Assembly (NCBI GenBank): GCA_951812955.1
Contig: OX638340.1
Location: forward strand, 2,880,001-2,944,000
Direction: 5' to 3'
Length of the DNA: 64,000 nucleotides
Source of the DNA: an uncultured Gemmatimonadota bacterium
Lineage (GTDB): Bacteria; JAAXHH01
Each line of letters opens with the position of its first letter. The stretch's first letter is position 1. Below the pieces are notes generated by a model, which was not told the DNA's origin, did no database searches, and was given only the letters and a program-made list of their open reading frames with translations. A program made the translations under genes and the position numbers. Below are positions 5,431 to 48,844 of the stretch, one piece after another.

Positions 5431-5584
5431 AACCTGCTCCGGCTAAAAAACTTGCCTGTTGTACAGGCGCCTTTAAATTGGGTCGAGAGTATTCCAAAAT
5501 ACAGACAGATCTTCATAGCTGGCAAGGGTGATTTTCCCAAACCAGGAAGGCGTGTCCCGGCTCGGTGCTGAAGGGAGATTTATC

Positions 5585-6370
5585 ATGTCTGCGGCACAAT
5601 CGGAAGCCCATCGTGGACTGACCATCGAAGCGGTCGGAGCGTTCCAGGACCAGGGGTTCCTGGTAGCCGGAAAATTGCTAGAGGACGATCACGTGGAAGT
5701 ACTGCGTGCGGAGTACGACCGCTTATTCGAAACGGCGCGTGAGAGCGGCCGTTACCGCAACCTTTCCATCGACGATACGGAAGACAAGAACCGGAAGAAC
5801 AGAGCCCGGACGCAGATGCTTCAGATCATGCAGATGTGCGAACGCAGCATCGAGTTCAGAAGACTGTTGTATCATGAACCCATCCTGGACATCGTCGAAT
5901 CACTGCTGGGACCCAATATCCAACTTTTCCACGACCAGGCGCTATACAAGCCGCCTCGTCAGGGCGGTCCCGTCTTCTGGCACCAGGACAACGGTTACTG
6001 GCAGTGCTCGCCAGCCAATCTGGTCAGCTGCTGGCTCACGCTGGATGACGTGGACGTGTCGAACGGGGCCATGCACCTGATTCCCGGGTCGCACCGGCAC
6101 CTGGTCTCCCATGAACGATCGGCCGAAACCAGCGCCCTGCTCGACCTCGGCGACCAGGCGGCTACGCAAAAGGCGACCGTGGTCGACCTGCCCGCGGGCG
6201 GCGCCATGTTCCACCACTGCCAGACCATGCACCACACCCCGGAAAACGTCACCGACCGGCCGCGCAGGGCTTTCGCCATCCATTACATGACGCCCGGCAC
6301 CAAATCGATCAGGACCGGGGACTACCTGGACGTATCGTTCTCCCGTCCTATGTTGCGGATGAGGGTGTGA
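5585..6370 (+). CDS. phytanoyl-CoA dioxygenase (PhyH) family Fe(II)/2OG oxygenase
   Basis: HQDNGYW motif and a downstream His with other PhyH-like blocks. RBS AGGGAG lies 7 nt before the ATG at 5585; the ORF track's upstream start at 5528 is probably not used. Confidence 0.7.
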   Translation: MSAAQSEAHRGLTIEAVGAFQDQGFLVAGKLLEDDHVEVLRAEYDRLFETARESGRYRNLSIDDTEDKNRKNRARTQMLQIMQMCERSIEFRRLLYHEPILDIVESLLGPNIQLFHDQALYKPPRQGGPVFWHQDNGYWQCSPANLVSCWLTLDDVDVSNGAMHLIPGSHRHLVSHERSAETSALLDLGDQAATQKATVVDLPAGGAMFHHCQTMHHTPENVTDRPRRAFAIHYMTPGTKSIRTGDYLDVSFSRPMLRMRV

Positions 6371-6395
6371 GGAAACGCGTTACAGGGAGATTTTC

Positions 6396-7238
6396 ATGAC
6401 GGAGAAACACCGGTGGGAACCCCTCGCCCCGGACCTGGAATCCATCCTGGCCGCCGAAAGCGATCCGCTCCTGGCCCTTTCGGAGGGCCGTATCCCCGCG
6501 ATCATATGCCGGCAGGCCTATGCGCCCGCTCACTGCCAGGCGTTGATCAAGCGGTTCATCGATCGCGGGCTGATGCGGGACCCCGACGATCCGGAGGCCG
6601 CGGCAACAGATAACCGCACGAGGATAGACATCGGGACCAGCCTGGCGAACCGGGGTTCGGACAAAGAGGCTTTTCTTAATCACGCAGTCGGCACGCGCCT
6701 TCTGTACGAGACCCTGTTCGATGGCTATGACGATCCGGTGAAGCTGCTGTACGGGGTGCTGGACACGCTCGCGGGCGAAAAGCGCGCTATGACCGCGCGG
6801 GAGCCGGACGGCCGCAAGTATGGTCCGGCCATCTTCCGAATCCACTACGGCGGACATACCTACAAACCCCACATCGACCACGTCACGCTCCGCGAGAAGC
6901 GGTTCGACTACGACGTGACCCGGTTCGGCCACCAGTTCGCCGGGGTCCTCTGCTTCCAGAATGCACTGCACGAGGGACGCAGCACCCAGGCCATCCTGCA
7001 CCGGTGCATGTGGACGCCCGAGGTGGAGGAATCCATCGAGACCGATACCTTCCCCGACTACGCCCGGCGCAACGGCGTCAGCAGCTACACGGTCGACCTC
7101 GAGCAGGGTGACCTCTACTTCTTCAACACCCGCCTCATCCACGAGGTGCCGGCCGTGGAGGGCGATCAGCCGCGCATCGTCCTCGCCACTTTCATCGGCT
7201 ATTCCCCCGACGACCCTGAAGTCTACGTCTGGTCGTGA
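6396..7238 (+). CDS. putative Fe(II)/2-oxoglutarate-dependent oxygenase
   Basis: HxD...H...R arrangement (PHIDHV ... LIHEV ... PRIVLAT) in a ~280-aa protein. RBS AGGGAGA precedes the ATG. Family assignment is tentative. Confidence 0.4.
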   Translation: MTEKHRWEPLAPDLESILAAESDPLLALSEGRIPAIICRQAYAPAHCQALIKRFIDRGLMRDPDDPEAAATDNRTRIDIGTSLANRGSDKEAFLNHAVGTRLLYETLFDGYDDPVKLLYGVLDTLAGEKRAMTAREPDGRKYGPAIFRIHYGGHTYKPHIDHVTLREKRFDYDVTRFGHQFAGVLCFQNALHEGRSTQAILHRCMWTPEVEESIETDTFPDYARRNGVSSYTVDLEQGDLYFFNTRLIHEVPAVEGDQPRIVLATFIGYSPDDPEVYVWS

Positions 7239-7240
7239 AC

Positions 7241-7804
7241 CTACAGCCTGCTATCCCACAGCGGCTCGTCCACCCCCCGTTCCTTGTTTTCGTATCGTGA
7301 CATGACGAAGAGCAGGTCGGACAGCCGGTTCAGGTAGGCCAGTACGAATCCGCCGATCGCCTCTTCGCGGGACAGGGCCGAAACCTCCCGTTCCGCCCGC
7401 CGGCAGACGGTACGCGCCAGGTGGAGGAACGCAGCCCCCGGAGATCCGCCGGGCAGGATGAAGTTCTCCAGCGGTCCGACGACGGGATTCAGTTCATCGA
7501 TAATCACTTCGAGATGCTTGACGTGGCGAGCTTCGATCAGCGGTATCTGGTACTTCGCTTTGTCCTCCTCGGTGAAGCACAGGTCTGATCCGAGGTGAAA
7601 GAGCTCGTTCTGGATGACGGGCAGCACTTCTGCGAGTCGCGTAGCCAATCCGTGGGCGAGGGCGATGCCGATGACGGAATTTAGTTCGTCCACGGTGCCG
7701 TAGCTCGCCACCCGGGGCGAATCCTTGGGTACGCGCTGCCGGCTGCCGAGCGCGGTCGTACCGTCGTCGCCTTTGCGGGTGTATATCTTCGTCAACCTGG
7801 GCAT
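7241..7804 (-). CDS. PduO-type ATP:cob(I)alamin adenosyltransferase
   Basis: N-terminus [17 protein letters not shown] is the PduO/MMAB-type signature. GGAGG RBS precedes the ATG at 7804. It is the last gene of the riboswitch-controlled operon. Confidence 0.85.
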
Positions 7805-7856
7805 GAGACCTCCTTGATTCAGATGCGGCGTTTTCGATTGACGCGCCGCCGCCGGT

Positions 7857-8873
7857 TCAGACCCGGCGTTGCCGGTGCAGCAGGTACAGGAAAAATGGCG
7901 CACCGAGTAACGTAGTCAGTATCCCAATGGGCAATTCGGCCGGCGCCATGGCCGTCCGGGCGACCAGGTCGGCCAGGACCAGCAACAGCGCGCCTGCCAG
8001 CGCGGCCATGGGCGTCAGGATGCGGTAGTCGGGTCCCACGATCAGCCGGACCATGTGCGGCGCCAGGAGCCCGACGAAACCGATGATGCCACTCACCGAA
8101 ACCGCGGCCGCGGCGAGGCCGGCCGCCGCCGCCAGCAGAACCAGTTTGACCCGTTCGACGTGCACGCCCAGCTGGGACGCCTGTTCGTCCCCCAGGAGCA
8201 GTACGTTCAGTTCCCGCGCGTACACGAGGACGATGGTCAGCCCCACCGCCGCGTAGGGCAATAGCATCCATACGTGATCCCATCTCCGGGCGGACAGGCT
8301 GCCCATGAGCCAGAAGAGCATCTGGCGCTGGTTCTCGCCGCCCATCACGAGCATGTAGGACGTGAAGGAGGTCGCCATGGCGCCGATGGCGATGCCCGTG
8401 AGGAGCAGGGTGGTCGACGCGACGCGGCCACCACGACGCGAGAAAGCGTATACCGCCATGGTTACGGCGAGGGCGCACATGAAAGCCAGAACGGATACCG
8501 CGTTCAGCCCGAACATCCAGAATTCCAGTTCCAGGGCGACCGCGGTCGTGGCGCCGAGTGCGGCGCCGGCCGATATGCCCATGATGTAGGGATCGGCCAT
8601 GGGATTCTGGAAGAAGCCCTGCATCACCCCGCCCGAACTGGCCAGGGCGGCCCCGACCAGCACGGCGAGGAGCGTTCTCGGCAGCCGGATCTCCCATACG
8701 ATCGTATTGGTCGCGGAATGTGCCGTCTCGATCACCCCGCCCGGCCAAAGGTTATCCGCCAGTACCTGCAGCACGGTTCCGGCCGGGATATACACCGCGC
8801 CTACGCCCATGGAAAGCACACAGGCGGCGAAGAGGATCGCGGCGGTCAATGCCAGGACAATGGATCTGTTCAT
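7857..8873 (-). CDS. FecCD-family ABC permease (BtuC-like corrinoid/iron-siderophore importer)
   Basis: 338-aa polytopic membrane protein with FecCD/BtuC-type conserved blocks ([13 protein letters not shown] ... [18 protein letters not shown]). Confidence 0.85.
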
Positions 8874-8888
8874 CGCCTCTCCAGTCCG

Positions 8889-9674
8889 TCAGTCGCCCGG
8901 CTTCAGGATGATCTGGGGCGAACCCGAATAGGGGCTTTTTATGACGGTCACGTCGGTCTCGAAGACCGCTTTGATGTGCCCGTGGGTGAGGATGTCCTCC
9001 GGCGGCCCGTCGGCGTAGGTGCGTCCGTCTTTCAGCATGAGGAGCCGGTGGCAGTATTCCGAAGACAGGTTCAGGTCGTGGGACACGCACAGGACCGCGA
9101 GTCCGTCGCTTGCGCATACGTGGCGCAGCAGATCGAAAACCTCTACCTGGTGGTTCAGATCCAGGAAGGAGGTCGGTTCGTCCAGCAACAGGATCGAGGG
9201 CTGTTGCGCCAGCGCCCGGGCGATGATAACCCGCTGCCTTTCTCCACCGGACAGTTCGTGGATAGGCCGGTCCCGGAACAGGAAGCAGTCGGTCCGGCGC
9301 ATGGCTTCGAGGGCGATTTCCCGGTCTTCCGGACCTTCTTTTCGGAAGCGCTTCAGGTGCGGCGTCCTCCCCATCATGACGAGTTCGAGCGACGAGAAGG
9401 CAAAAGTCGCGGGCGTCAGCTGGGGGATGACGGCGATCTGCCGGGCGATTTCGCGGACGGTGTAAAGTTGAAGCGGCCTGCCATACAGCTCGATTTGTCC
9501 ATGGCTCAGTGGTAGAATGCGCGTGAGCGCCCGGATCAGCGTGCTCTTGCCGGAGCCGTTCGGTCCGATCACGCCCAGCATCTCGCCCTGGTGCAGGTCG
9601 AAGGTCAGGCCTTCCAGTACCGGGCGCCGATCGTACCCGCAGGACAGGTTCTCGACTTTAATGGCCGTATCCAA
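8889..9674 (-). CDS. ABC transporter ATP-binding protein (BtuD/FecE-like)
   Basis: Walker A GPNGSGKST, signature LSGGERQRV, Walker B ILLLDEPTS. TTG start lies 26 nt downstream of the riboswitch terminator with a GGGGTG RBS. Confidence 0.85.
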   Translation of the reverse strand: MDTAIKVENLSCGYDRRPVLEGLTFDLHQGEMLGVIGPNGSGKSTLIRALTRILPLSHGQIELYGRPLQLYTVREIARQIAVIPQLTPATFAFSSLELVMMGRTPHLKRFRKEGPEDREIALEAMRRTDCFLFRDRPIHELSGGERQRVIIARALAQQPSILLLDEPTSFLDLNHQVEVFDLLRHVCASDGLAVLCVSHDLNLSSEYCHRLLMLKDGRTYADGPPEDILTHGHIKAVFETDVTVIKSPYSGSPQIILKPGD

Positions 9675-9699
9675 GCTGTATCACCCCGAGATTTGGCAC

Positions 9700-9733
9700 A
9701 AAAAAACCAGCCGCTCCATGTTGGAAGGGCTGG
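9700..9733 (-). terminator. intrinsic terminator of the cobalamin riboswitch expression platform
   Basis: On the minus strand: CCAGCCCUUCCAACAUGGAGCGGCUGG hairpin followed by U7. It sits between the aptamer and the ATPase start. Confidence 0.75.
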
Positions 9734-9794
9734 GTCGGGACGGCAGGCATGCGCATCCGGGCTCGGCCTCTCTGCTCACGGAGAAGCGTTCGCA

Positions 9795-9979
9795 CAGCCT
9801 GCAGGCAGGTCTCCTGACTGACGGATCGTCCTACTCCTCAAGTCTTCCCGCCGGCCATTTGGCTTAGCCTAACCGGCAGTGACGAGTTTGAGTTTCGTCC
9901 CCGAACACAGTGGCGGGACCGTGATGGATTCGCACCATCTTCCCTTTTCAGCGTTCTAGCTAACCGCCACCTGCGGCTG
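9795..9979 (-). ncRNA. cobalamin (AdoCbl) riboswitch aptamer
   Basis: Minus strand reads ...AAAAGGGAAGAUGGUGCGAAUCCAUCACGGUCCCGCCACUGUG... and later the B12 box AGUCAGGAGACCUGCC. The P1 stem is CAGCCGCAGG / CCUGCAGGCUG. Confidence 0.85.
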
Positions 9980-10078
9980 TATTCGATTGTCCTTTCAATT
10001 TACAGGATAGCGGAAATACCGCAATGCAAATTCTCCTTCGGACCTCGAGTCGTACGATGTATGAGGATAGAACGATAG

Positions 10079-10107
10079 TTGAATTGCACGGCTGGAACGG
10101 TTATAAT
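10079..10107 (+). promoter_or_regulatory. sigma70-like promoter for cbiZ-cbiB (TTGAAT-N17-TATAAT)
   Basis: Seen directly in the AT-rich divergent region. A transcript start would lie about 60 nt upstream of the cbiZ start. Confidence 0.4.
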
Positions 10108-10173
10108 CTAACCTTACACGAATGGTTGGCGGCAATGATCGTCGAGTTATGATCCACGCGTCCAGAGTTGAAG

Positions 10174-11298
10174 ATGAAAGCGTTACTTGATCGCCACGAG
10201 CATTACGTGCTTGAAAGAGATGGCCGTTTTCTCGTCGCGGCATTGCAGTCGCCCCACCAGGTGCTGAGTACCTCGGTCTGCGGCGGCGGAATGACCGACC
10301 GGGTCCGGTTTATCGTGAATCACCAGAGCTGCGAGGGCCAGGGCCACGGTGATCGGTTCGAATGGATGAATGAACTCGGCGAGCCCGGATACCATCGGCA
10401 CGTATGCAATGAACTCGGACTGGAACCCGAGGCCGTCGCGATGATGGGCACGGCCGCCAACATGAACTATGCCGCCCGGATCGTGGAGACCTTTGCGGAA
10501 TTGCGCGTATGCGCCGTCGTTACCGCCGGAGTCGAGGGCAACGCCGGCTGCGCGGGCGATCCCGCGAACTGGCATGAGACCGAATCCGGCCAGATGGAAA
10601 GACACCCCCACGACGGTACGATAAACACGATGCTGCTCATCAACTGGCCGCTTACGCCCGGCGCCATGGCGCGAGCGGCCGTCACCATGACCGAAGGCAA
10701 ATCGGCCGCCCTCCAGGAGCTTGCCGTTTCAAGCCTGTACTCCCAGGACCTGGCGACCGGGACGGGCACGGACCAGTACTGTATCGCCGCTCCGATGGAC
10801 GAAGCGAAACGGCCCAAGGCCCGGGCGGGACATCACGCAAAACTGGGCGAACTGATCGGCAGGTCCGTCCGCAGGGCGACCCTGGAAGCGCTTCGGTGGC
10901 AGAACGGACTGGAGGCGTCGAGCACCCGGAGCCTGTATCATGCGCTGAAACGGTACGGAATCAAGGCGGACCTGTTTCTGTCCGCCATGGAAAGCCGCCT
11001 GGAAGCGGACGAGTTAGCCTTTTTTGACAAAAACATCCGATCGGTCATCCACGATCCGGGCGTTTCGGCCGCCGCCTACGCCTTCGCGGCAGTATGGGAC
11101 CGACTCAGGCACGGAACGCTCTCCCCAACGCTGGCCGCACCGTTATTGCGACAGCAGGCCGCGGTGCTGGCGTCCTCGCTGGCTGCGAAACCCGAAACCT
11201 GGCCGACCTGTTACGAACAACTCGTCGTCCATGAAGACGCATTGCTGGATACCGTCTACGACGCGATAGCATTGGGATGGCGTCTCAAATGGACCTGA
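10174..11298 (+). CDS. cbiZ: adenosylcobinamide amidohydrolase CbiZ-like, with C-terminal extension
   Basis: CbiZ-family resemblance over the N-terminal ~250 aa, plus a ~120-aa C-terminal extension. It is adjacent to cbiB. The start could be the TTG at 10168 or the ATG at 10174. Confidence 0.6.
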   Translation: MKALLDRHEHYVLERDGRFLVAALQSPHQVLSTSVCGGGMTDRVRFIVNHQSCEGQGHGDRFEWMNELGEPGYHRHVCNELGLEPEAVAMMGTAANMNYAARIVETFAELRVCAVVTAGVEGNAGCAGDPANWHETESGQMERHPHDGTINTMLLINWPLTPGAMARAAVTMTEGKSAALQELAVSSLYSQDLATGTGTDQYCIAAPMDEAKRPKARAGHHAKLGELIGRSVRRATLEALRWQNGLEASSTRSLYHALKRYGIKADLFLSAMESRLEADELAFFDKNIRSVIHDPGVSAAAYAFAAVWDRLRHGTLSPTLAAPLLRQQAAVLASSLAAKPETWPTCYEQLVVHEDALLDTVYDAIALGWRLKWT

Positions 11299-12254
11299 CG
11301 GTACTCGCACCGGATCCCGTGCTGATAATTTGCGCGGTCGTGCTCGACGGCATCCTGGGCGATCCGGTTTACCGGTGGCATCCGGTACGCCTCATGGGCC
11401 ATACGCTCACCGTGCTGGAGCGCGTGCTCCGGCGGATAGGACTGGATGGGTACGCCGGCGGATGCATGCTGTTCCTGGTGCTCTCCGTGTTCTGGGTAGG
11501 CGTCAGCGCGGCATTGGCCCTCGGATTACACGATCAGCATCCCGCCCTGAACGGGATCTACCAGATTTTCGTGATTTACAGCATGGTGGCGCTCAGGGAC
11601 CTCTGCCGCCACGGCCTGGCCATCGATCGCGCCGGAGACCTCAAAGGCGCGCGGCGGGCCGTGTCCATGCTGGTCGGTCGGGATACCTCCACCATGGACG
11701 CCGCGGCCTGCGGGCGCGCGGGCATGGAAAGCCTGAGCGAGAACGCGGTGGACGGCTTCATTGCGCCACTGTTCTGGTATGCCCTGCTGGGATTGCCGGG
11801 CATCGTGCTTTTCAAGGTGATCAGCACGATGGATTCCATGGTGGGATACCGGACGCCCCGGTATGCGGCCTTCGGCTGGTGCGGCGCGCGGCTGGACGAC
11901 CTGTTCAATCTCATCCCCGCCCGGCTCACCTATCTGCTGATGGCGGTGATCGCGTTTCTTCTGCCTGGATATTCAGGCCGCAAGGCCCTGTTTGTGGGTT
12001 GGCGGCAGCACGCGCAGATTCCGGGTCCGAACTCCGGTTGGAGCGAAGCATCGGCGGCCGGCGCTGTGCAGCGGCGGCTGGTCGGACCGGTCCTGCAGGA
12101 CGGGGAGCTGGTTACCGAGGTCTGGATCGGCGACGCAGGCGACCCGGAAGGCGGCCAGGCCGGCGATCTGCGCCGCATGTGCCTGTTCGTGGTGGTTACC
12201 TGTTCGCTGACCACCGCACTCGCTGTTCTGGTCCTGGTCGTGCTGGCGAATTAA
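11277..12254 (+). CDS. cbiB: adenosylcobinamide-phosphate synthase CbiB/CobD
   Basis: Membrane protein with CbiB/CobD blocks (HPVRLMG, FWYALLG, PGIVLFKVISTMDSMVGY). It overlaps the cbiZ end. Confidence 0.85.
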   Translation: MASQMDLTVLAPDPVLIICAVVLDGILGDPVYRWHPVRLMGHTLTVLERVLRRIGLDGYAGGCMLFLVLSVFWVGVSAALALGLHDQHPALNGIYQIFVIYSMVALRDLCRHGLAIDRAGDLKGARRAVSMLVGRDTSTMDAAACGRAGMESLSENAVDGFIAPLFWYALLGLPGIVLFKVISTMDSMVGYRTPRYAAFGWCGARLDDLFNLIPARLTYLLMAVIAFLLPGYSGRKALFVGWRQHAQIPGPNSGWSEASAAGAVQRRLVGPVLQDGELVTEVWIGDAGDPEGGQAGDLRRMCLFVVVTCSLTTALAVLVLVVLAN

Positions 12255-12288: not shown

Positions 12289-13301
12289 TTACCTGACCAC
12301 CCCATAGAACCGCGCCAGGAATCTTGCCGGAACAAACAGGGAAAAAAGCAGCCGCAGGAGCCAGGTCAGCAACAGCGTGCGAACCGGCCCACGGCGTTCC
12401 CAGCGCCGTGCGGAAGTAAGCACGGGTTCGTCGATCCAGTCCAGTCCGCCGGCCTTCTTCAGCCGGTCGGCGAATCGGGCGTCTTCAAAGACCGGGATCC
12501 CTGGAAATCCGCCCACTGTCTCGAAGGCCTCCCGGGTGGTATAAATCGCCTGATCGCCGTAGGTAATACCCAGGAAGCGCGAGCGGAAATTGGTTCCCCC
12601 CGCGATCCACCGGTATATCCGGCTTGCATGGGCAATGTCGAAACGAAACCTTCCCCCCGCCTTGCCGCGTCCGAAGATCGATTCAGCTACCAGCTCCCGC
12701 CAACGGTTCGGAAGCCGGGTGTCTGCGTGAAGGAAAAGCAGCACGTCTCCGGACGAGGCCGCGGCACCCTCGTTCATCTGGACCGCACGGCCCGGTTTGC
12801 CCAGCTCGACCAAGCCTACCTCGGAACGTGACCGGACGATTCCCGCCGTTCCGTCGTCGCTTCCGCCGTCCACGACGATAATCTCCAGTCCATCTGAAAC
12901 GTCCGGCAGGCCACTGCGGCCCAGTCCGCCCGATCCGCCCGATTCGCCCAGAGCGCCTCGCAGGCCCGATCCGCTCGATCCGCCCGATTCGCCCATCACG
13001 CCTCGCAGGCCCGATCCGCCCGATCCGCCCGATCCGCCCGATCCGCCCAAACCGCCTGATTCGCCCTGTCCGCAATCGAACTGGTCCAGGCAGTCTCCGA
13101 TGGTCGTGGCTTCGTTGAGCGTGGGGATGATGATGCTGACGCGGAGGGGCTTGGCCAATCGTGCTTTCGCGCGTCTCGAGGTCACGTGATCGGAGGATGC
13201 GTTCCCGCGTCCGGACTTATCGAGCGGCGTCTGAGATGTTGAAGGCGATGCGCGCGACTTACCCGAGGGTTCGTTCCAATGCCCGGATGAAGGCTTCATT
13301 T
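12289..13301 (-). CDS. family-2 glycosyltransferase (TIGR04283-like) carrying an internal Gly/Ser-rich repeat insertion
   Basis: IIIPTLNE and EIIVVDGGSDDGT motifs are split by an insertion of about 60 aa of GGSGG/LRG repeats. Start placed at the ATG after a GAGAGAAG RBS. The longer ORF upstream overlaps the aminotransferase and is unlikely to be coding. Confidence 0.65.
12921..13063. repeat. in-frame 9-bp tandem repeat tract (CCCGATCCG x4 perfect plus degenerate copies) inside the GT2 gene
   Basis: Direct reading of the DNA. It encodes GSGGSGG/LRG repeats on the minus strand. Confidence 0.8.
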
Positions 13302-14602
13302 TCTTCTCTCGAACCCGTCGAAACCCGGATGTGGTTCGGTGACGCCCACTGGCCGGCGCCCGCGCGGACCATGACCCGCCTGGACCATAACGAACGCACG
13401 ATGCGCTGCGTCTCCCGCCCGAAATCGGCCCAGAGAAAGCACGCGTGGCTGGGCACGACCCGGGCGCCCAGTCGCTCCAACTCGGCCGTGAGGTAATCGT
13501 TGCCTTCCCATACGGCCTGCAGGGACCGCTTGACGTGTTCATCGTCACCGAGGGCCGCTGCGGCCGCGTGGACGGACAGGACGTTCCGGCCGAGGAGTCC
13601 CATGGAGAAAGGCGCCAGCCTGTAGATCACGTCCCGATGCGCGATGGCATAGCCCACGCGGATGCCGCCGAGTCCGTACACCTTGGAGAACGTCCGGAGC
13701 ACGATCACGTTTTCCCGTTCCTTGGCGACTTCGATGAAATCCCGATATTCCGGGTCACGGACAAAGTGAACGTAGACCTCGTCAATGGCCACGAGGACAT
13801 GCGGCGGCACCCGGTCGATGAAGTCCAGGATCCGATCATGGGGCAGCAGCGCTCCGGTGGGGTTGTGGGGGTTGCAAATGATGACCAGGCCTGTGCTTTC
13901 GCCGATCCGCTTCCCCATGTCTTCGAGATCGTGGTTTCCGTCCGGCAACACGGGCGACCGTTGCGACTGCACCCCGTGGCCGGCGTCGCGGAGTTCGTCG
14001 CCGACGCGGGTAACCTGGCCGTAGGAAGGGAATGCTTCCACGACTTCGCCGTGTTTCATCAGGGCCTGCAGGGCCAGGATCTGGAGTAGTTCGGTCGTTC
14101 CCACACCAAGCATCAGGCCGTGGCGCTCGCCTGTCGCCTTGAAATCGAAGCCCGACGGGCGGGGAATGTCCAGGCCGTGGTGCCGGATGATCGCGTTTTG
14201 CAGGGTGGTCGTGTAATCATACCGGTTCATCCAGTCCTGGTGGCGCAGCACGGCTTCTATGGCCGCCGGGGACGCGCCCAGGGGGTTTTCGTTGAAGGCG
14301 AGCCGGACGCGGCCCGGTTCGACTCCCACGCCCTTTACATCCGTGGGTTGACGCCCGGAGAGCTGGGCAGCTACCGATTCGGGTGCATGCGGTCCGCCCA
14401 GTCCCGCCACCAGCGCTGCCGCGCCTGTCAGTCCACCCCGGAGGAAATCTCTCCGTGATACGGGCTCGTCCGGCGGGTATCCGTCCGGCAGGAATCCGAA
14501 TGAATGGACGGACTCGTCTAGTCTTTCTGGGGAAGGCACAGGGTAGATCCATCGGTATGGGTGAATGCGCGGCAACCAGGTTCTAAGCGGACAGCGCGTC
14601 AC
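13259..14602 (-). CDS. class I/II PLP aminotransferase (HisC-like) with twin-arginine signal
   Basis: SRRDFLRGGLTGAAALVAGLGG Tat motif. LAFNENPLG, NPHNPTG and SKVYGLGGIRVGY blocks are typical of HisC-type aminotransferases. GTG start lies 10 nt after the relA stop; the exact start is uncertain. Confidence 0.7.
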   Translation of the reverse strand: MTRCPLRTWLPRIHPYRWIYPVPSPERLDESVHSFGFLPDGYPPDEPVSRRDFLRGGLTGAAALVAGLGGPHAPESVAAQLSGRQPTDVKGVGVEPGRVRLAFNENPLGASPAAIEAVLRHQDWMNRYDYTTTLQNAIIRHHGLDIPRPSGFDFKATGERHGLMLGVGTTELLQILALQALMKHGEVVEAFPSYGQVTRVGDELRDAGHGVQSQRSPVLPDGNHDLEDMGKRIGESTGLVIICNPHNPTGALLPHDRILDFIDRVPPHVLVAIDEVYVHFVRDPEYRDFIEVAKERENVIVLRTFSKVYGLGGIRVGYAIAHRDVIYRLAPFSMGLLGRNVLSVHAAAAALGDDEHVKRSLQAVWEGNDYLTAELERLGARVVPSHACFLWADFGRETQRIVRSLWSRRVMVRAGAGQWASPNHIRVSTGSREENEAFIRALERTLG

Positions 14603-26699: not shown

Positions 26700-27087
26700 G
26701 GTATTATATCCGATTGCCTTCGCGCCGGTCGCGCCCTGATCAAACCTAACCAACCTGCGCTTTGACCGAGGCCCCGGGATTTCCGTCCCGCAATTTTGGC
26801 CTGGCCCCGCTCTTTCAATCAAAACACAAAAAAGTGTTGACTACAACGAAACTAAGATTAGATTAATAAAAATAAAGAGTTACTAAGATACGTTTAATTT
26901 AATCAAACTAAAGTGCGATGAGCGGAGTTACATCGAGTCAACATCAGTCTTCAGGCAATCTCTGACAGGTAAGCGACTGTCCATCTCGTAATACGCACAG
27001 GACGGGAAAGGAGGCCATATAGATCCGTGCCTTTACGCAGCAGCAATTTTACAGCAAAGAGTAACATTCGATAAACGGGAGACAAAG
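26700..27087. other. AT-rich non-coding island upstream of the collagen-like gene
   Basis: About 390 bp, markedly AT-rich against the 65% GC background, with no ORF above 60 aa. Confidence 0.6.
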
Positions 27088-28512
27088 ATGCATTATCTCA
27101 TATTGTTTGTGATTGCGTTCGCGCTATCCATGATGGGATGCGAAGGCAAGACAGGCCCCGCCGGCCCTACTGGTCAGCAGGGCGTGGCTGGTCCGCAGGG
27201 TGTTGCCGGGTCTACGGGATCTCAGGGATCTGCCGGTCCCCAGGGTCCTGAAGGTCCTCAAGGTCCCCAGGGCGATACCGGTCCCGCCGGTCCCCAGGGT
27301 CCTGAAGGTCCGCAGGGTTCCCAGGGCGATACCGGTCCCGCCGGCCCAGAGGGTCCCGCCGGTCCTCAGGGCGATACCGGTCCCGCCGGTCCAGAGGGTC
27401 CTGAAGGTCCGCAGGGCTCCCAGGGCGATACCGGTCCCGCCGGTCCTCAGGGACCTCCGGGCGAGGGCATAGACGCAGGTCAGGTGATCGACAGCGGCGT
27501 GCTGTCCGCCATTCATCACATCAAGTTGACCCAGGATGGAAACGCCAAGATGGTCGCCGTGTTCGACGCGCCTGATTTCGCGCTCAGAGCCGATCCGGGC
27601 AACAATCTGGATCTGACTATGGCCGTCGGTGAAACGACCACCATTGTCGCAAAGGCCGCCAGTCAGGACGGTGCGGTACTGGCCGTCGGTTTCGAATGGG
27701 AAACCAACTCTCAGGCCATTACGGTCGACGGCGGCACGATTACGGCAGTGGAACCGACCGCGGACGCCAAGATTACCCTCACGGCTGTTGGCAGGGGGGT
27801 GGAGATCGAGCTGGACGTCACGGTGCTCGACCTGATAAAGCGGATCGAGATCGCCATGCCGCACGCTTACGTTCTTCCAGTCGACGGTTCGGTCACGTTG
27901 TCGGCTACGGCCTACGATGCGACAAAGGGCGGAGATGAAATCGAAGGCGCCCAGATCATGTTCCTGAGTTCCGACACCAACGTGGTCAGCGTTGACGGCA
28001 ATACAATTACCGCCGAAGACGTGGGCACGGCCGAGGTCGTTGCCACGGGTGGCGGCGTCGACTCCAAGGATAAAGTCAAGATCACCGTCACCGGTACCGG
28101 CACGCTTCTGTATGCGATGCGATATACCAATATAGAAGCCGCCGCCCGTACCAGGGAACTGACAAAAGCCGATCCCGATGCCGTCGATGATGAGGGCAAT
28201 GCAGCTCCGATAACCCGGGAGGTGGATCCTGATACGAACATCGTTTTTCGAGTCCAGGTATTCGACATCGAGGCTGACGGTTCTCTGTCACTTACTTCTG
28301 ATACTCCGAATGTGACGGTCCGCAGCCAGCAGCCTGAGGTGGTAGCGATTCCCACTGACCAGAACTCGTTTGCTGTAGCCAATGGCATAGCGACAATTGC
28401 CATCCAGACCGGTGATACTTGGATCCTGGAACACGGGACGGCTTACCTGGTCGTTTCGTTGGACGGCGCCGAGGACATCGCTCTGCCCGGCATTATGATC
28501 GACGCACCCTGA
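27088..28512 (+). CDS. collagen-like (Gly-X-Y) repeat lipoprotein with bacterial Ig-like (Big_2-type) domains
   Basis: Signal peptide with lipobox (LSMMGC). About 36 uninterrupted GXY triplets ([16 protein letters not shown]...), then beta-rich repeats resembling Big_2 domains. Confidence 0.8.
27142..27468 (+). repeat. coding tandem repeat (collagen GXY tract with about 45-bp higher-order periodicity)
   Basis: Repeated ggtcccgccggtcc(c/a)cagggtcctgaaggtccgcagggttcccagggcgatacc units. Confidence 0.8.
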
Positions 28513-41822: not shown

Positions 41823-42914
41823 ATGTCCGAGCAGGTCCAGATTGCCCCGGCGCCGGAACCTGTCCCGCCGTCTCCCGCGCTGCCCGTACTGCAACCGGAC
41901 TCGGGCTATCTCGGGTACGACCGGGCGCTGTTGCGGCCCATGTCCCTCGGCACTAAGCTCCGAGCCTTGTTCAAGTACCTCTGGGTACGATTGAAGGGCG
42001 GACCGATGGCGGTGAACATGGAGGTGACCTATCTGTGCAACGCCACCTGCGATTTCTGTGATTACTGGAAGACGAAACGTTCAGGCAAGCTGGGCGATTA
42101 CGACTACATGGAGGCGCTCAGGAAGCTGAACCCCCTGACGGTCACGCTGACCGGCGGGGAACCCATGATCAACAAGCGACTGCCCGAGGCGGTCAGACGC
42201 ATCAAGGATGGCCTGGGATTCGTTTATATCGGCATGGTCACCCACGGATCTCTGCTGACCGTAGAAAAGGCCATGGCCCTGTGGGATGCCGGCGTGGACC
42301 ACATTTCGATCTCGTTGAACTATATCGGCCGCGAACATGACGAGGAACGGGGTATCGCGGGTTTGTACGAGCATATCTCCACGCTCGTTCCCCAGCTGAC
42401 GGCCCGAGGGGTCAACGTGATCTTCAACACGGTGATCATGCGTGAGAACCTGGACCACGTCGTACCCATCGCGCACCTGGCGCGTTCTATGGGCGCGAAG
42501 GTTTCCTACAGTTGCTACAGCGACTACAAGAATGGGAACGAAACCCACCTTGTGGATCCCGGTCACGAGGAGCAGTTGGAATCCGTGATCGAGGATCTGA
42601 TCTACCAGAAATCCCGATTGGGAAACATCGTCAATTCCGCCTGGTACTTGCGCCGGATCCCCGATTACTTCCAGGATGCGCTTCCAAGGTCCTGCACGGC
42701 AGCGGGCAAGTGGCTGGTGCAACTGACTCCCGACGGCAACGTAAAACCCTGTGCGGAACTGCCCGTAATGTCCGGGTATGCCGATTTCAAGCGGGTTTCA
42801 ACGAAGATCGACTGCAACCGGTGCTGGTACAGTTGCCGGGGTGAGACCGAATCTTCGTTGAAGCTTGTAAGGGTGCTGGAAGGCCTGGGCAGGGCCTGGC
42901 GCAGTAGCGCTTAA
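41823..42914 (+). CDS. radical SAM enzyme with C-terminal SPASM/twitch-like Cys cluster
   Basis: CNATCDFCDYW (CxxxCxxC) plus C-terminal Cys-rich CAELPV...CNRCWYSCRGE. AGGAG RBS. Confidence 0.75.
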   Translation: MSEQVQIAPAPEPVPPSPALPVLQPDSGYLGYDRALLRPMSLGTKLRALFKYLWVRLKGGPMAVNMEVTYLCNATCDFCDYWKTKRSGKLGDYDYMEALRKLNPLTVTLTGGEPMINKRLPEAVRRIKDGLGFVYIGMVTHGSLLTVEKAMALWDAGVDHISISLNYIGREHDEERGIAGLYEHISTLVPQLTARGVNVIFNTVIMRENLDHVVPIAHLARSMGAKVSYSCYSDYKNGNETHLVDPGHEEQLESVIEDLIYQKSRLGNIVNSAWYLRRIPDYFQDALPRSCTAAGKWLVQLTPDGNVKPCAELPVMSGYADFKRVSTKIDCNRCWYSCRGETESSLKLVRVLEGLGRAWRSSA

Positions 42915-45900
42915 ACTACTACCGGCGCCAGTTCCCGGGCGAGGATCTTCCCGGTATGGGACAACAGGGACGCTGCGATATCCTCGGGCGTACCCGCGGC
43001 AACCACGTGACCGCCCCGGTCACCGCCTTCCGGACCTAGATCGACGATCCAGTCGGCCGTCTTGATGACGTCCAGGTTGTGTTCGATGACGAGCACGGTG
43101 TTCCCCTTGTCCACCAGCCTGTTGAGGACGTTCAGCAACTTGCGGATGTCGTCGAAGTGCAGCCCGGTGGTCGGCTCGTCCAGCAGGTAGACGGTCTTGC
43201 CGGTACCCGGCCGCGAGAGCTCCTTCGCCAGCTTGACGCGTTGCGCCTCGCCTCCCGAGAGCGTAATGGCCGACTGGCCGAGCTTGATGTAGTCGAGTCC
43301 CACGTCGTAAAGCGTCTGCAACATACGCCGGATGCGGGGCACGTTCTCGAAGTGCTCCAGGGCTTCGGCCACGGTCATCTCCAGCGTATCCGCGATCGTC
43401 TTACCCTTGTAGGTCACTTCCAGCGTCTCCTTCATGTAGCGCTTGCCGTCGCACACTTCGCAGGTCATCCACACGTCCGCCAGGAAATGCATCTCGATCT
43501 TGCGCACGCCGAGTCCCTGGCAGGCCTCGCACCGTCCAGCGGGCACGTTGAAGCTGAACCGTCGGGGTTCGTAGCCCCGCATCCGAGCCTCCACGGTCCG
43601 GGAGAAGAGCGACCGGATCGGCGCGAAGAGCCCGACGTAGGTGGATGGATCCGACCTGGGGGAATGGCCGATCGGGGTCTGGTCGATGTTTATGACCTTG
43701 TCCACGAACCGCAACCCCTTGATTTCATCGTGGGGTCCAGGGTTTACCTGGGCGCGGTGCAGGGTGGAGGCCAGCACAGGATGAAGGATGTCGTTGACGA
43801 GCGAGCTCTTTCCCGAACCGGACACCCCTGTGACGCAGATGAAAACGCCAAGGGGCAACGTCACGTCGATGTTCTTCAGGTTGTTCTGGCGCGCCCCGAG
43901 GATGCTAAGCCTGTTCCGGCCCGGCTTGCGGCGGTCCCGCGGCACTTCGATGCGAAGCCTGTTTCCCAGGTAACTGCCGGTGAGTGAAGTCTCGAGTTCC
44001 CTGAGGGCGGCGGGGGTGCCTTCGCCCACGATCCGGCCTCCGAACACCCCCGCTCCCGGTCCGAAATCCACCAGGTTGTCGGCATGCTCCAGCGTGTCGC
44101 GGTCGTGTTCGACCATGATCAGCGTATTGCCGAGATCGCGCAGGTTCTCCAGGGCATGGATCAGCCTGAGGTTGTCCCGCGGGTGAAGCCCGATCGTGGG
44201 TTCGTCCAGCACGTAGAGCACGCCGGTCAGCCCCGATCCGATCTGGCTGGCCAAACGGATTCGCTGTGCTTCGCCGCCCGATAGCGAGGGCGCCCGGCGG
44301 TCGAGGGTCAGGTATTCCAGCCCCACGTCGAGGAGGAAGCGCATGCGGTTTCTGATTTCCTTCATCACCTCGCCCACGACTTCCCGCTGCGGCGCCGAGA
44401 GTTTCAGGCCTTCGATGAAGTCCAGGGCACGGTCGGTGGACATGGCGCATAGCGCCGCAATGGACACGCCGTCGATCAGCACGGAAAGGCTTTCGGATCG
44501 GAGCCGTCCGCCTTCACATGCCGAGCAGGGCGTCGGCTGCAGGAGGCGGGCCAGTTCGGGAAAGCGGTTCGCGTAGCGGGCGACCAGTTCCACGGCCGGG
44601 AAGATGCCCCGGAACTGGAAGGACAGGCCGGGGACCCGTTGGTCCTCTATCCACCGGTCGCTGCCATAGAGCAACACCTGGAGCTGTTCTGCCGACAGCG
44701 CTTCAACGGGCGTCTCCAGGTTGAATCCCTGGGTGGACGCCACCAGTTCAAGCAGGTCGAGTATGGACCGTTCGCCCACCGTGCCTTCCTCCCAGATCGC
44801 AGCCGCGGCGTCCCTTATGGATTTCGAACGATCGGGAATCAACAGGTCGAGATCGATGCCGGGCTGGGTTCCGAGTCCCTCGCAATCGGGGCACATGCCC
44901 GCCCGGTGGTTGAATGAGAAGCTCTGGGGCGAGAGTTCGTCGTAACTGACTCCGCAGGCGGGACACGAATAGTACCGGCTGAAGCGGATATCGTGTGGAC
45001 CGGCGGAATCCGGTTCCTGCACCTCGGCGATCAGCAATCCCCCCGATAGGTCCAATGCCGTCTCCACCGAATCGGCCAGGCGCTGTCGGACGTCGCCCTG
45101 CATGACGATCCGGTCTACCACCACGCACAGTTCGTGGCGCCGCCGCCGGTCGATCTGAATGTCCTCTTCGAGCCGCCGCAACACGCCATCGATGCGTACC
45201 CGGATGAACCCGTTCCGGCGGGCCCTGTCCAGAAGGGCATCGTATCCCTCGGCGCCTTCGGGTTCCAGCGGCGCATGCAGCGTGGCGCGGGTCTGCTCCG
45301 GGAGGGTCATGATGCGGTCCACGATCTGGCTGGGCGTCTGCGCGCCGATGGGAACGCGGCAGGCGGGGCAGTGGGGCGCGCCGACCAGGGCGTAGAGTGC
45401 GCGCAGGTACTCGTAGATCTCCGTAATGGTGCCCACCGTGGAGCGTGGGTTCCGGCCCGGCGCCTTCTGTTCGATGGATATGGCCGGGGAAAGGCCGACG
45501 ATATGGTCCACCTTCGGCTTCTGCATCTGCTGGAGGAACTGGCGCGCGTAGGCTGAAAGGGATTCCACGTACCGTCTCTGGCCTTCCGCGTAGATCGTAT
45601 CGAGGGCCAGGGAAGTTTTCCCGGAGCCGGAAACGCCCGTGAACACGGTCATCCGGTCCCGGGGGACAGCCACGGTGAGGTCACGCAGGTTGTGCTCCCG
45701 CGCGCCGCGCACGGTGATCTCCCGTATGTGGCCGTCTCCTGCTGCGTCCTGCCTGACCGGTTTAGGAGCCACGGGGAGCGCCCGGGGCCGAAGCGCCTTC
45801 TCCAGGATCCGGCCCGTGGACGATCCGTCGACGCCCGCCACGGTCTCCGGCGTTCCCTCCGCGATGACGCGGCCGCCCGCGTCGCCGCCCTCCGGGCCCA

Positions 45901-48613: not shown

Positions 48614-48844
48614 GGGAATCAAGCCGGATTCAGCGGGTCGTTGGATCAGGGCGAACGGCGGCGGCACAGCAAGCGAAAGATGCTATACGGGTGTTTAGAA
48701 ATCAAGGTATTTTCAAGGTGGACCGTGAATGGCGGAAAAGACGCTTGTTCTATGCCGTTACCGGAGTTAACGTGGTGTCGGCCGGTCCATCAGAATGCGG
48801 CGCGCCGGCCCGCCGCAGCCGATGTCGGAAACGGGACGATCATC

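Follow-up and report, generated by a model that had tools for sequence, protein, structure and literature searches.

Introduction

How does an uncultured bacterium regulate the uptake of corrinoids through an operon that carries no gene for a binding protein, and which functions would the neighboring salvage genes add? This question is raised by a locus in a stretch of DNA of 64,000 nt from an uncultured Gemmatimonadota bacterium (contig OX638340.1, positions 2,880,001 to 2,944,000); this whole stretch is referred to as the window. On its minus strand, a cobalamin riboswitch precedes genes for an ATP-binding cassette (ABC) ATPase, a permease, and a PduO-type adenosyltransferase, while cbiZ and cbiB are located divergently. 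The best-supported reading, to which an overall probability of roughly 0.8 is assigned, is that a class-I riboswitch of the adenosylcobalamin (AdoCbl) type in the 5′ leader of the three-gene operon would act as an AdoCbl-responsive transcriptional OFF switch, with termination as the probable switching mode, and that a corrinoid would be the transported substrate. An earlier description of the locus, made from the sequence letters and called here the original prediction, had proposed such a terminator-type riboswitch. That cbiZ is linked to corrinoid transporters, and that these are regulated by the supply of corrinoids, is described in the literature (PMC4285132, PMC7733943, PMC3541065), and links between cbiZ and corrinoid transporters as well as a coupling of CbiZ activity to uptake have been discussed already (PMC7733943; PMC4285132).

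The Cobalamin Riboswitch Aptamer

The whole window was scanned with Rfam 15. The sole match at the gathering threshold is to the cobalamin riboswitch family RF00174 (gathering threshold 31.5 bits); it is located at 9786..9989 on the minus strand and reaches 117.1 bits with an E-value of 1.1e-28, covering model positions 1-189 of 189. The minus-strand AdoCbl aptamer of the original prediction is thereby borne out: the quoted motifs lie where they had been placed, and the covariance-model scan that had been proposed as a check yields a score far above the threshold. In the covariance-model alignment, the B12 box AGUCAGGAGACCUGCC and the core junction AAAAGGGAAG...GCCACUG occupy the consensus positions with high posterior probability, and a long peripheral extension is found which is typical of AdoCbl-type members; the partner of an L5-L13 kissing loop was not identified. 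These features argue for a class-I element in the leader of the operon, with AdoCbl as the most likely ligand. A second riboswitch serving cbiZ-cbiB was not detected at the gathering threshold in the window.

The window is 99% identical to the chromosome-level metagenome-assembled genome (MAG) OY762445.1 and groups with MAGs labelled Candidatus Latescibacterota, and with one labelled Gemmatimonadota. With the CbiZ protein of the window, 16 genomic loci were retrieved, from Latescibacterota, Entotheonella, and Fibrobacteria, and a riboswitch adjoins cbiZ-cbiB in 15 of them (L001 was not scanned). In nine related loci btuD-btuC-pduO adjoin cbiZ-cbiB; all seven of the loci with this neighborhood that were scanned with Rfam (L002-L008) contain a full-length RF00174 element (107-123 bits), and the leaders of L001 and L016 align with that of the window.

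The Expression Platform and the Mode of Switching

Three hairpins are predicted in the platform, all on the minus strand. The first, GCUUCUC / CGUGAGCA / GAGAGGC (9766..9787, 7 bp), was predicted by folding; its seven pairs are all invariant across 10 loci, which gives no covariation for or against it. The predicted second hairpin, GGAUG.CGC...GCG.CGUCC, is located at 9738..9758, and its 3′ half can instead pair with the 3′ strand of P1. Here 95% of cells are paired, one pair varies between U-A and U-G, and two sequences are mismatched. The third is an intrinsic-terminator-like element at 9700..9733, consisting of the hairpin CCAGCC-C-UUCCA/ACA/UGGAG-C-GGCUGG (9733..9707; -16.5 kcal/mol according to ViennaRNA) and, directly after it, a run of seven uridines (U7, 9706..9700); a single further T7 run exists in the 64 kb when both strands are counted. 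A GC-rich hairpin with an immediate U-run upstream of a regulated open reading frame (ORF), as is characteristic of intrinsic (Rho-independent) terminators, is thus present. A simple terminator scan missed this hairpin, probably since its interrupted stem does not fit the stem-loop rule, and ViennaRNA was used instead. All 10 of the related loci possess the hairpin (-13.6 to -18.7 kcal/mol) and the U-run, and these data support the terminator-type platform that had been proposed. The 290-nt leader, including all three hairpins and the U-run, is 89-97% identical among the relatives, at a synonymous divergence of the flanking genes of 0.4-0.8 per site, which speaks for constraint on the leader.

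The ATPase gene begins with a TTG codon (9674..9672), preceded by the Shine-Dalgarno-like sequence GGGGUGA (9687..9681). An earlier start is ruled out because an in-frame TGA (9683..9681) is located three codons upstream of the TTG; in the relatives, a GTG is found at the same codon. Of the strong hairpin with U7 that had been described ahead of this start, all elements stand, while the spacing between U-run and TTG is 25 nt rather than 26. As a separate observation, the first btuD codons including the GTG start (AGCGTGGAAACCGCCATC) are present in two to four tandem copies in L007 (~9468-9500), L006 (~7570-7603), and L016 (~7540-7590), and in a single copy in the window.

According to the proposed mechanism, the aptamer would close P1 when AdoCbl is plentiful, and the hairpin with U7 would then act as an intrinsic terminator, with transcription ending 25 nt ahead of the start codon. 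Under AdoCbl scarcity, the polymerase would read through, and the inner-membrane importer and the corrinoid-adenosylating enzyme would be expressed.

Several observations weigh against this model. The relatives are so closely related that compensatory changes in the platform helices are lacking; with 95% of the platform pairs maintained across the relatives and zero double changes, covariation is uninformative. The 131-nt platform as a whole folds no better than shuffled sequence (z = -0.43), and truncated leaders, when folded, yielded no convincing antiterminator. As an alternative to P1, its 3′ strand prefers the 3′ half of the second platform hairpin over the terminator, with whose 5′ strand it can directly form, by manual inspection, 5-6 bp only. 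Switching may proceed by a relay that involves the second hairpin, by kinetic control, or in part at the level of translation, alternatives that are not separable from the present data.

The missing antiterminator would also be accounted for if the switch were mainly translational, or operated at both levels, with the P1 3′ strand or its neighborhood pairing with the ribosome-binding site or start region and the hairpin with U7 being a constitutive attenuator or pause site. When the platform is folded by itself, AGGCUGU from the 3′ side of P1 indeed pairs with ACAGCUU overlapping the TTG start, and the start codon is only 25 nt past the U-run. This pairing is, however, weaker in the relatives, where the start region reads GGCAGCGUGG, and in the fold of the full leader the Shine-Dalgarno sequence GGGGUGA is unsequestered. 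Given, in addition, a GC-rich hairpin running directly into U7, which is the standard signature of a terminator and is maintained in all ten loci, control mainly at the level of translation, or at both levels, is considered unlikely, and transcriptional termination is retained as the preferred mode.

The Importer-Adenosyltransferase Operon and Its Substrate

The regulated operon consists of three genes on the minus strand, for which the proposed order and identities were confirmed by Pfam and NCBIfam. These are a btuD-like gene for an ABC ATPase of 261 amino acids (8889..9674; PF00005, 111.5 bits), a btuC-like gene for a FecCD-family permease of 338 amino acids (7857..8873; PF01032, 329 bits), and a gene for a PduO-type ATP:cob(I)alamin adenosyltransferase of 187 amino acids, counted from the ATG at 7804 (7241..7804; PF01923, 197.4 bits, cutoff 24; TIGR00636, 199.8 bits, cutoff 108.45). 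The pduO ORF reaches up to 7903 by upstream read-through; the relatives align from M1, that is, from the ATG at 7804. The ratio of nonsynonymous to synonymous substitution (dN/dS) is 0.07-0.12 for btuD and 0.10-0.17 for btuC; values within 0.07-0.17 for btuD, btuC, pduO, and both halves of cbiZ reflect purifying selection, and these genes are therefore taken to be functional.

The FecCD-family permease and the ABC ATPase of a BtuCD-F type-II importer are both present. Corrinoids are suggested as the substrate because a cobalamin riboswitch leads the operon, pduO is co-transcribed, and cbiZ-cbiB lie alongside; homologous riboswitch-led operons of Entotheonella and Fibrobacteria, which contain genes for a TonB-dependent receptor, btuF, btuC, and btuD, support this assignment. 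The family models point less clearly in this direction. The permease finds its best NCBIfam match in BtuC NF007081 with 338 bits at a cutoff of 461 and stays under both BtuC cutoffs; the ATPase remains below the equivalog cutoffs for corrinoid ATPase (NF007082, 254.8 versus 537) and for BtuD (NF002981, 131 versus 281) and just passes that of the heme ABC ATPase equivalog (262.9 bits, cutoff 261). The assignment of a corrinoid substrate therefore rests on context. Transport of heme or of an iron chelate would agree with the heme cutoff being reached by the ATPase and with the low permease scores, but it would leave unexplained why a cobalamin riboswitch leads the operon, why a corrinoid adenosyltransferase is co-transcribed, and why cbiZ-cbiB adjoin; moreover, the BtuC model remains the best match of the permease. 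A heme or iron-chelate transporter is thus deemed very improbable, and a corrinoid importer is preferred. Automatic annotation would probably name this riboswitch-controlled ATPase a heme transporter.

The Missing Binding Protein and Receptor

Upon scanning about 47 likely genes of the window against Pfam, neither a Peripla_BP_2 (BtuF-type) protein nor a TonB-dependent receptor was found among them, and tblastn and phmmer searches of the window with BtuF (two sequences) and BtuB from related loci returned nothing. Likewise, in nine related genomes neither btuF nor a gene for a TonB-dependent receptor lies at a distance of up to 10 kb from the locus. The cognate Peripla_BP_2 protein of a BtuCD-F importer is, in this way, missing from the 64-kb window as well as from the 10-kb flanks of nine related loci. 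By Pfam, tblastn, and phmmer alike, the proposed absence of a binding-protein gene from the operon holds within the window. A btuF gene just beyond the window in the same operon, which the original prediction had named as the finding that would speak against it, does not exist either, because the operon ends inside the window against the convergent gene of a WelO5-like 2-oxoglutarate (2OG) oxygenase (6396..7238, plus strand).

Two hiding places for a binding-protein gene were considered and rejected. The ORF 6348..7142 on the minus strand, following pduO, has no family match, and its GC content by codon position is patterned like that of a shadow frame, the actual gene being that at 6396..7238 on the plus strand. 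In the relatives, the space separating pduO from the WelO5-like gene is taken up by Vsr, toxin-antitoxin, and helix-turn-helix (HTH) genes, and tblastn and phmmer with BtuF found nothing there.

The outgroups are organized differently. In Entotheonella, the riboswitch leads genes for a TonB-dependent receptor, btuF, btuC, and btuD; in Fibrobacteria, a gene of no assigned function is inserted between those of the receptor and btuF. Locus L020, whose CbiZ is 61% identical to that of the window, comprises genes for a TonB-dependent receptor and a FlgD_ig-domain protein, followed by pduO, btuF, btuC, btuD, btuF, cbiZ, and cbiB. In the closest outgroup, L022 (CbiZ 71% identical), the riboswitch leads btuF and the gene of a TonB-dependent receptor, cbiZ-cbiB adjoin, and btuD-btuC are located a few kb off. 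The riboswitch of L022 lies at 1676-1846 on the plus strand, that is, ahead of btuF and the receptor gene and not of btuD-btuC, at which none was detected in the L022 locus. Since btuF and btuB are retained at the locus in the outgroups, the loss of both genes from it is, on this comparison of loci, a derived feature of the one clade to which the window belongs.

Seen against known importers, the absence of btuF from the operon is not unusual in itself. The btuCED operon of Escherichia coli is also devoid of btuF, and unlinked btuF genes are normal; to our knowledge, type-II ABC importers do not work without a binding protein. As the genes at the locus are under purifying selection, the genome probably encodes a binding protein at another site, as in E. 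coli, and this is the most likely explanation for its absence here. The periplasmic binding protein, together with any outer-membrane receptor, would then be supplied from outside the locus to the type-II ABC importer.

Such an unlinked gene was looked for and not found; among the best 120 matches to the BtuF of a sister lineage (down to 54% identity), none was traced to the window's clade. This outcome would agree with a complete loss of BtuF and the outer-membrane receptor from the clade, in which case the BtuCD-like pair would work with another binding protein or without a BtuF of its own. The lack of both proteins in the 64-kb window and within 10 kb in nine related genomes, their retention beside cbiZ in outgroups with 52-71% identical CbiZ, and the chromosome sizes of ~3.3-3.9 Mb in the clade and 5-8 Mb in the outgroups point in the same direction. 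Because binding-protein-free type-II importers are not known to us and an unlinked btuF, as in E. coli, is normal, a complete loss is nevertheless regarded as quite unlikely, and a gene elsewhere in the genome remains the preferred explanation.

The Adjacent cbiZ-cbiB Genes

The divergent genes cbiZ and cbiB, both on the plus strand, were confirmed by Pfam and NCBIfam. The catalytic domain of CbiZ, an adenosylcobinamide amidohydrolase, is encoded at 10174..10890 (PF01955, 193.5 bits, cutoff 27, residues 26-238). The gene cbiB (11277..12254), for adenosylcobinamide-phosphate synthase, overlaps the end of cbiZ by 22 nt and matches PF03186 with 273.7 bits and TIGR00380 with 206.6 bits (cutoff 165.9). 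CbiZ would hydrolyze imported adenosylated cobinamide or unwanted cobamides to adenosylcobyric acid, from which CbiB would then rebuild adenosylcobinamide phosphate. Genes for nucleotide-loop assembly were not detected in the window. Of the compact salvage and remodelling island that had been proposed, the grouping of five B12 genes is real, and the island is limited to these five, with nucleotide-loop genes not detected. An aminotransferase gene at 13259..14602 (minus strand) was considered as cobD and rejected; its product is HisC-like and scores 139.6 bits on the CobD model TIGR01140, versus a cutoff of 290.

The C-Terminal Domain of CbiZ

The cbiZ ORF comprises 376 codons for amino acids (374 from the ATG), and the Pfam CbiZ match stops at residue 238. 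The remainder, encoded at 10891..11298 on the plus strand (stop codon included), is predicted to form an all-helical domain of ~135 amino acids with a predicted local distance difference test (pLDDT) value of 90.8. The C-terminal extension of ~120 amino acids noted earlier is thus genuine, if somewhat longer than stated, and the domain search proposed for it matched no Pfam or NCBIfam family. Membership in a known family was also sought in PDB sequences and by hhalign against PgpA, and was rejected after no match was obtained.

The 374-amino-acid form of CbiZ is common, being found in more than 100 database clusters that are 54-97% identical over ~100% of the length. When the C-terminal 138 residues were used in an exhaustive search, 162 representative clusters were retrieved; in full-length matches, the domain occupies residues ~240-380 of proteins of ~375-400 amino acids, with Pfam CbiZ upstream in the six that were checked. 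Stand-alone copies were considered and rejected, since the five short matches that were checked are three truncated CbiZ fragments, one peptidase-fragment chimera, and one degenerate sequence. The domain is absent from the plasmid CbiZ of cultured bacteria, namely, Paracoccus (198 amino acids), Dehalococcoides, Leptospira, and Cytobacillus, of which the latter three align only to residues 12-241. Judged from these searches, the domain is seen solely fused to CbiZ and marks a bacterial long-form CbiZ subfamily, so that it is not peculiar to the genome of the window. Its invariant residues are WQNGLE, S, T, R, N, P, R, R, and GW..KW, and its dN/dS of 0.10-0.15 is the same as that of the catalytic domain. 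Further domains are added in the proteins P0166, P0190, and P0146: some long-form CbiZ proteins carry an additional C-terminal carbon-nitrogen hydrolase (nitrilase-type) domain and reach 712-730 amino acids, and in one protein the helical domain is followed by CbiB.

A lead on the function of the domain might come from the archaea, in which CobZ is PgpA-like and CbiS is a fusion of CbiZ and CobZ. The sole NCBIfam match of the whole CbiZ protein is CbiS NF038002, in an alignment that runs into the C-terminal domain, and the domain shows a weak structural resemblance to YutG/PgpA-type phosphatases, with nonsignificant Foldseek E-values of at least 0.7; the structure 1rfz is presumably a YutG-type protein, and CobZ is taken by us to belong to the PgpA family. 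Speculatively, the domain could then be a very divergent phosphatase of the YutG/PgpA/CobZ type and the protein a bacterial counterpart of archaeal CbiS, combining amidohydrolase with alpha-ribazole-5′-phosphate phosphatase activity. The NF038002 score of 69.7 bits is, however, far under the cutoff of 250, so that the protein is not classed as a bifunctional CbiS by this model. The domain alone finds nothing in NCBIfam or Pfam, its profile retrieves no YutG or LtrC chain among PDB sequences, the hhalign probability is 0.4% for E. coli PgpA and 0.1% for a PgpA profile of 120 sequences, and the PGTxGS-type motif of PgpA is absent. A phosphatase function is accordingly held to be doubtful. A plasmid-borne "PgpA" of Halogeometricum, considered as a bridge to archaeal CobZ, was rejected; it is a bacterial-type PgpA without B12 context.

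In a wider and equally tentative proposal, whose two parts do not exclude each other, the domain would be a cryptic YutG/PgpA/CobZ-like phosphatase or a nucleotide-loop-binding module, and the clade would have dispensed with BtuF and BtuB. If this were true, long-form CbiZ proteins would be bacterial analogues of CbiS, coupling amide hydrolysis to the handling of alpha-ribazole phosphate in cobamide remodelling, and a Latescibacterota clade of reduced genome size would import corrinoids via a BtuCD-like pair with a different binding protein or with none.

Rearrangement of the Locus and Other Genes of the Window

In comparison to the window (7241-12254), the segment comprising leader, btuDC, and pduO is inverted in L006 (7248-12015) and L016 (7225-10243), where one riboswitch precedes the colinear array btuD-btuC-pduO-cbiZ-cbiB with 4 nt between pduO and cbiZ. 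The B12 salvage locus was thus rearranged within one clade: btuF and btuB left, and in some members an inversion gave rise to a five-gene operon. The site at which pduO meets the WelO5-like gene is a hotspot of insertion (window 7238-7241; L001 5578-7105; L004 3590-7014; L005 1269-6747). While the genes abut in the window, islets of 0.7-5.5 kb are found in relatives, encoding a Vsr endonuclease, HicB/XRE antitoxins, RelE- and PIN-type toxins, and an ImmA/IrrE-like HTH peptidase. On the other side of this junction, a PhyH-like and a WelO5-like 2OG/Fe(II) oxygenase gene lie side by side in the window (5528-7238, plus strand), and this pair is conserved beside the B12 locus in all Latescibacterota-like relatives; the WelO5 family consists of carrier-protein-independent halogenases.

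Downstream of cbiB, the ORF 12289-13548 (minus strand) matches the arsenosugar-type glycosyltransferase model TIGR04283 via its C-terminal 200 residues only, has atypical GC values by codon position, and overlaps the next gene (13259-14602, minus strand) by 290 nt, which suggests a mis-set start or two genes. The HisC-like aminotransferase encoded by that next gene has a weak N-terminal match resembling a twin-arginine translocation signal. At 26992-28512 (plus strand), a protein with collagen triple-helix (G-X-Y) repeats is encoded; a long antisense ORF overlaps it, and its signal in GC content at third codon positions is weaker than that of the neighbors. Finally, an ORF of 1923 amino acids at 42911-48682 (minus strand) represents a tandem-fused double UvrA, in which two UvrA-like units are complete, with two UvrA_inter domains, two UvrA DNA-binding domains, and several ABC ATPase modules.

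Significance and Comparison with Known Systems

Riboswitch and operon are nothing new in principle; both riboswitch-led genes for B12 transport and adenosylation and the linkage of cbiZ to transporters are well described. Of minor interest are the departure of btuF and btuB from the locus, which is specific to the clade, and the helical domain that is unannotated and specific to CbiZ. For an uncultured Latescibacterota-like group, whose relatives, judged by contig names, include Entotheonella, a clean annotation is obtained. Because cobamide remodelling shapes the forms of B12 that circulate in microbial communities, finding out whether the domain serves in substrate selection, as a phosphatase, or in docking to the importer would be of modest yet genuine value.

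Among known systems, the class-I members of RF00174, such as the leaders of btuB and cob in E. coli and Salmonella and the btuF-linked riboswitch of Thermoanaerobacter, share with the riboswitch of the window the full-length model match, the B12 box, the peripheral extension, and the location in the leader of B12 transport genes, and there is no categorical difference. The platform of E. coli btuB sequesters the ribosome-binding site, whereas that of the window is probably of the terminator type. The E. coli btuCED operon is likewise an importer operon without a binding-protein gene, btuF being unlinked; it differs by the absence of riboswitch control and the presence of btuE, while the operon of the window possesses a riboswitch and an adenosyltransferase gene.

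With CbiS of Methanopyrus kandleri, the long-form CbiZ has in common the order of CbiZ followed by a helical domain of ~135 amino acids and the weak resemblance to the YutG/PgpA-type fold; the differences are an NF038002 score far below the cutoff and a C-terminal domain without detected sequence similarity to PgpA. With CbiZ (PF01955) of archaea and Rhodobacter sphaeroides, the N-terminal 240 residues and the adjacent cbiB are shared, to which a conserved helical domain of 135 amino acids is added in the protein of the window. Closest in overall design are BtuFCD loci under B12 riboswitches with a nearby cbiZ, as found in archaea, Dehalococcoides, Dehalobacter, and Rhodobacter, which likewise combine a cbiZ-linked FecCD permease and ABC ATPase with regulation by corrinoids (PMC4285132, PMC7733943), a linkage also seen in Entotheonella, Fibrobacteria, and other relatives; the operon of the window's clade differs from these in that, instead of btuF or the gene of a TonB-dependent receptor, it carries pduO.

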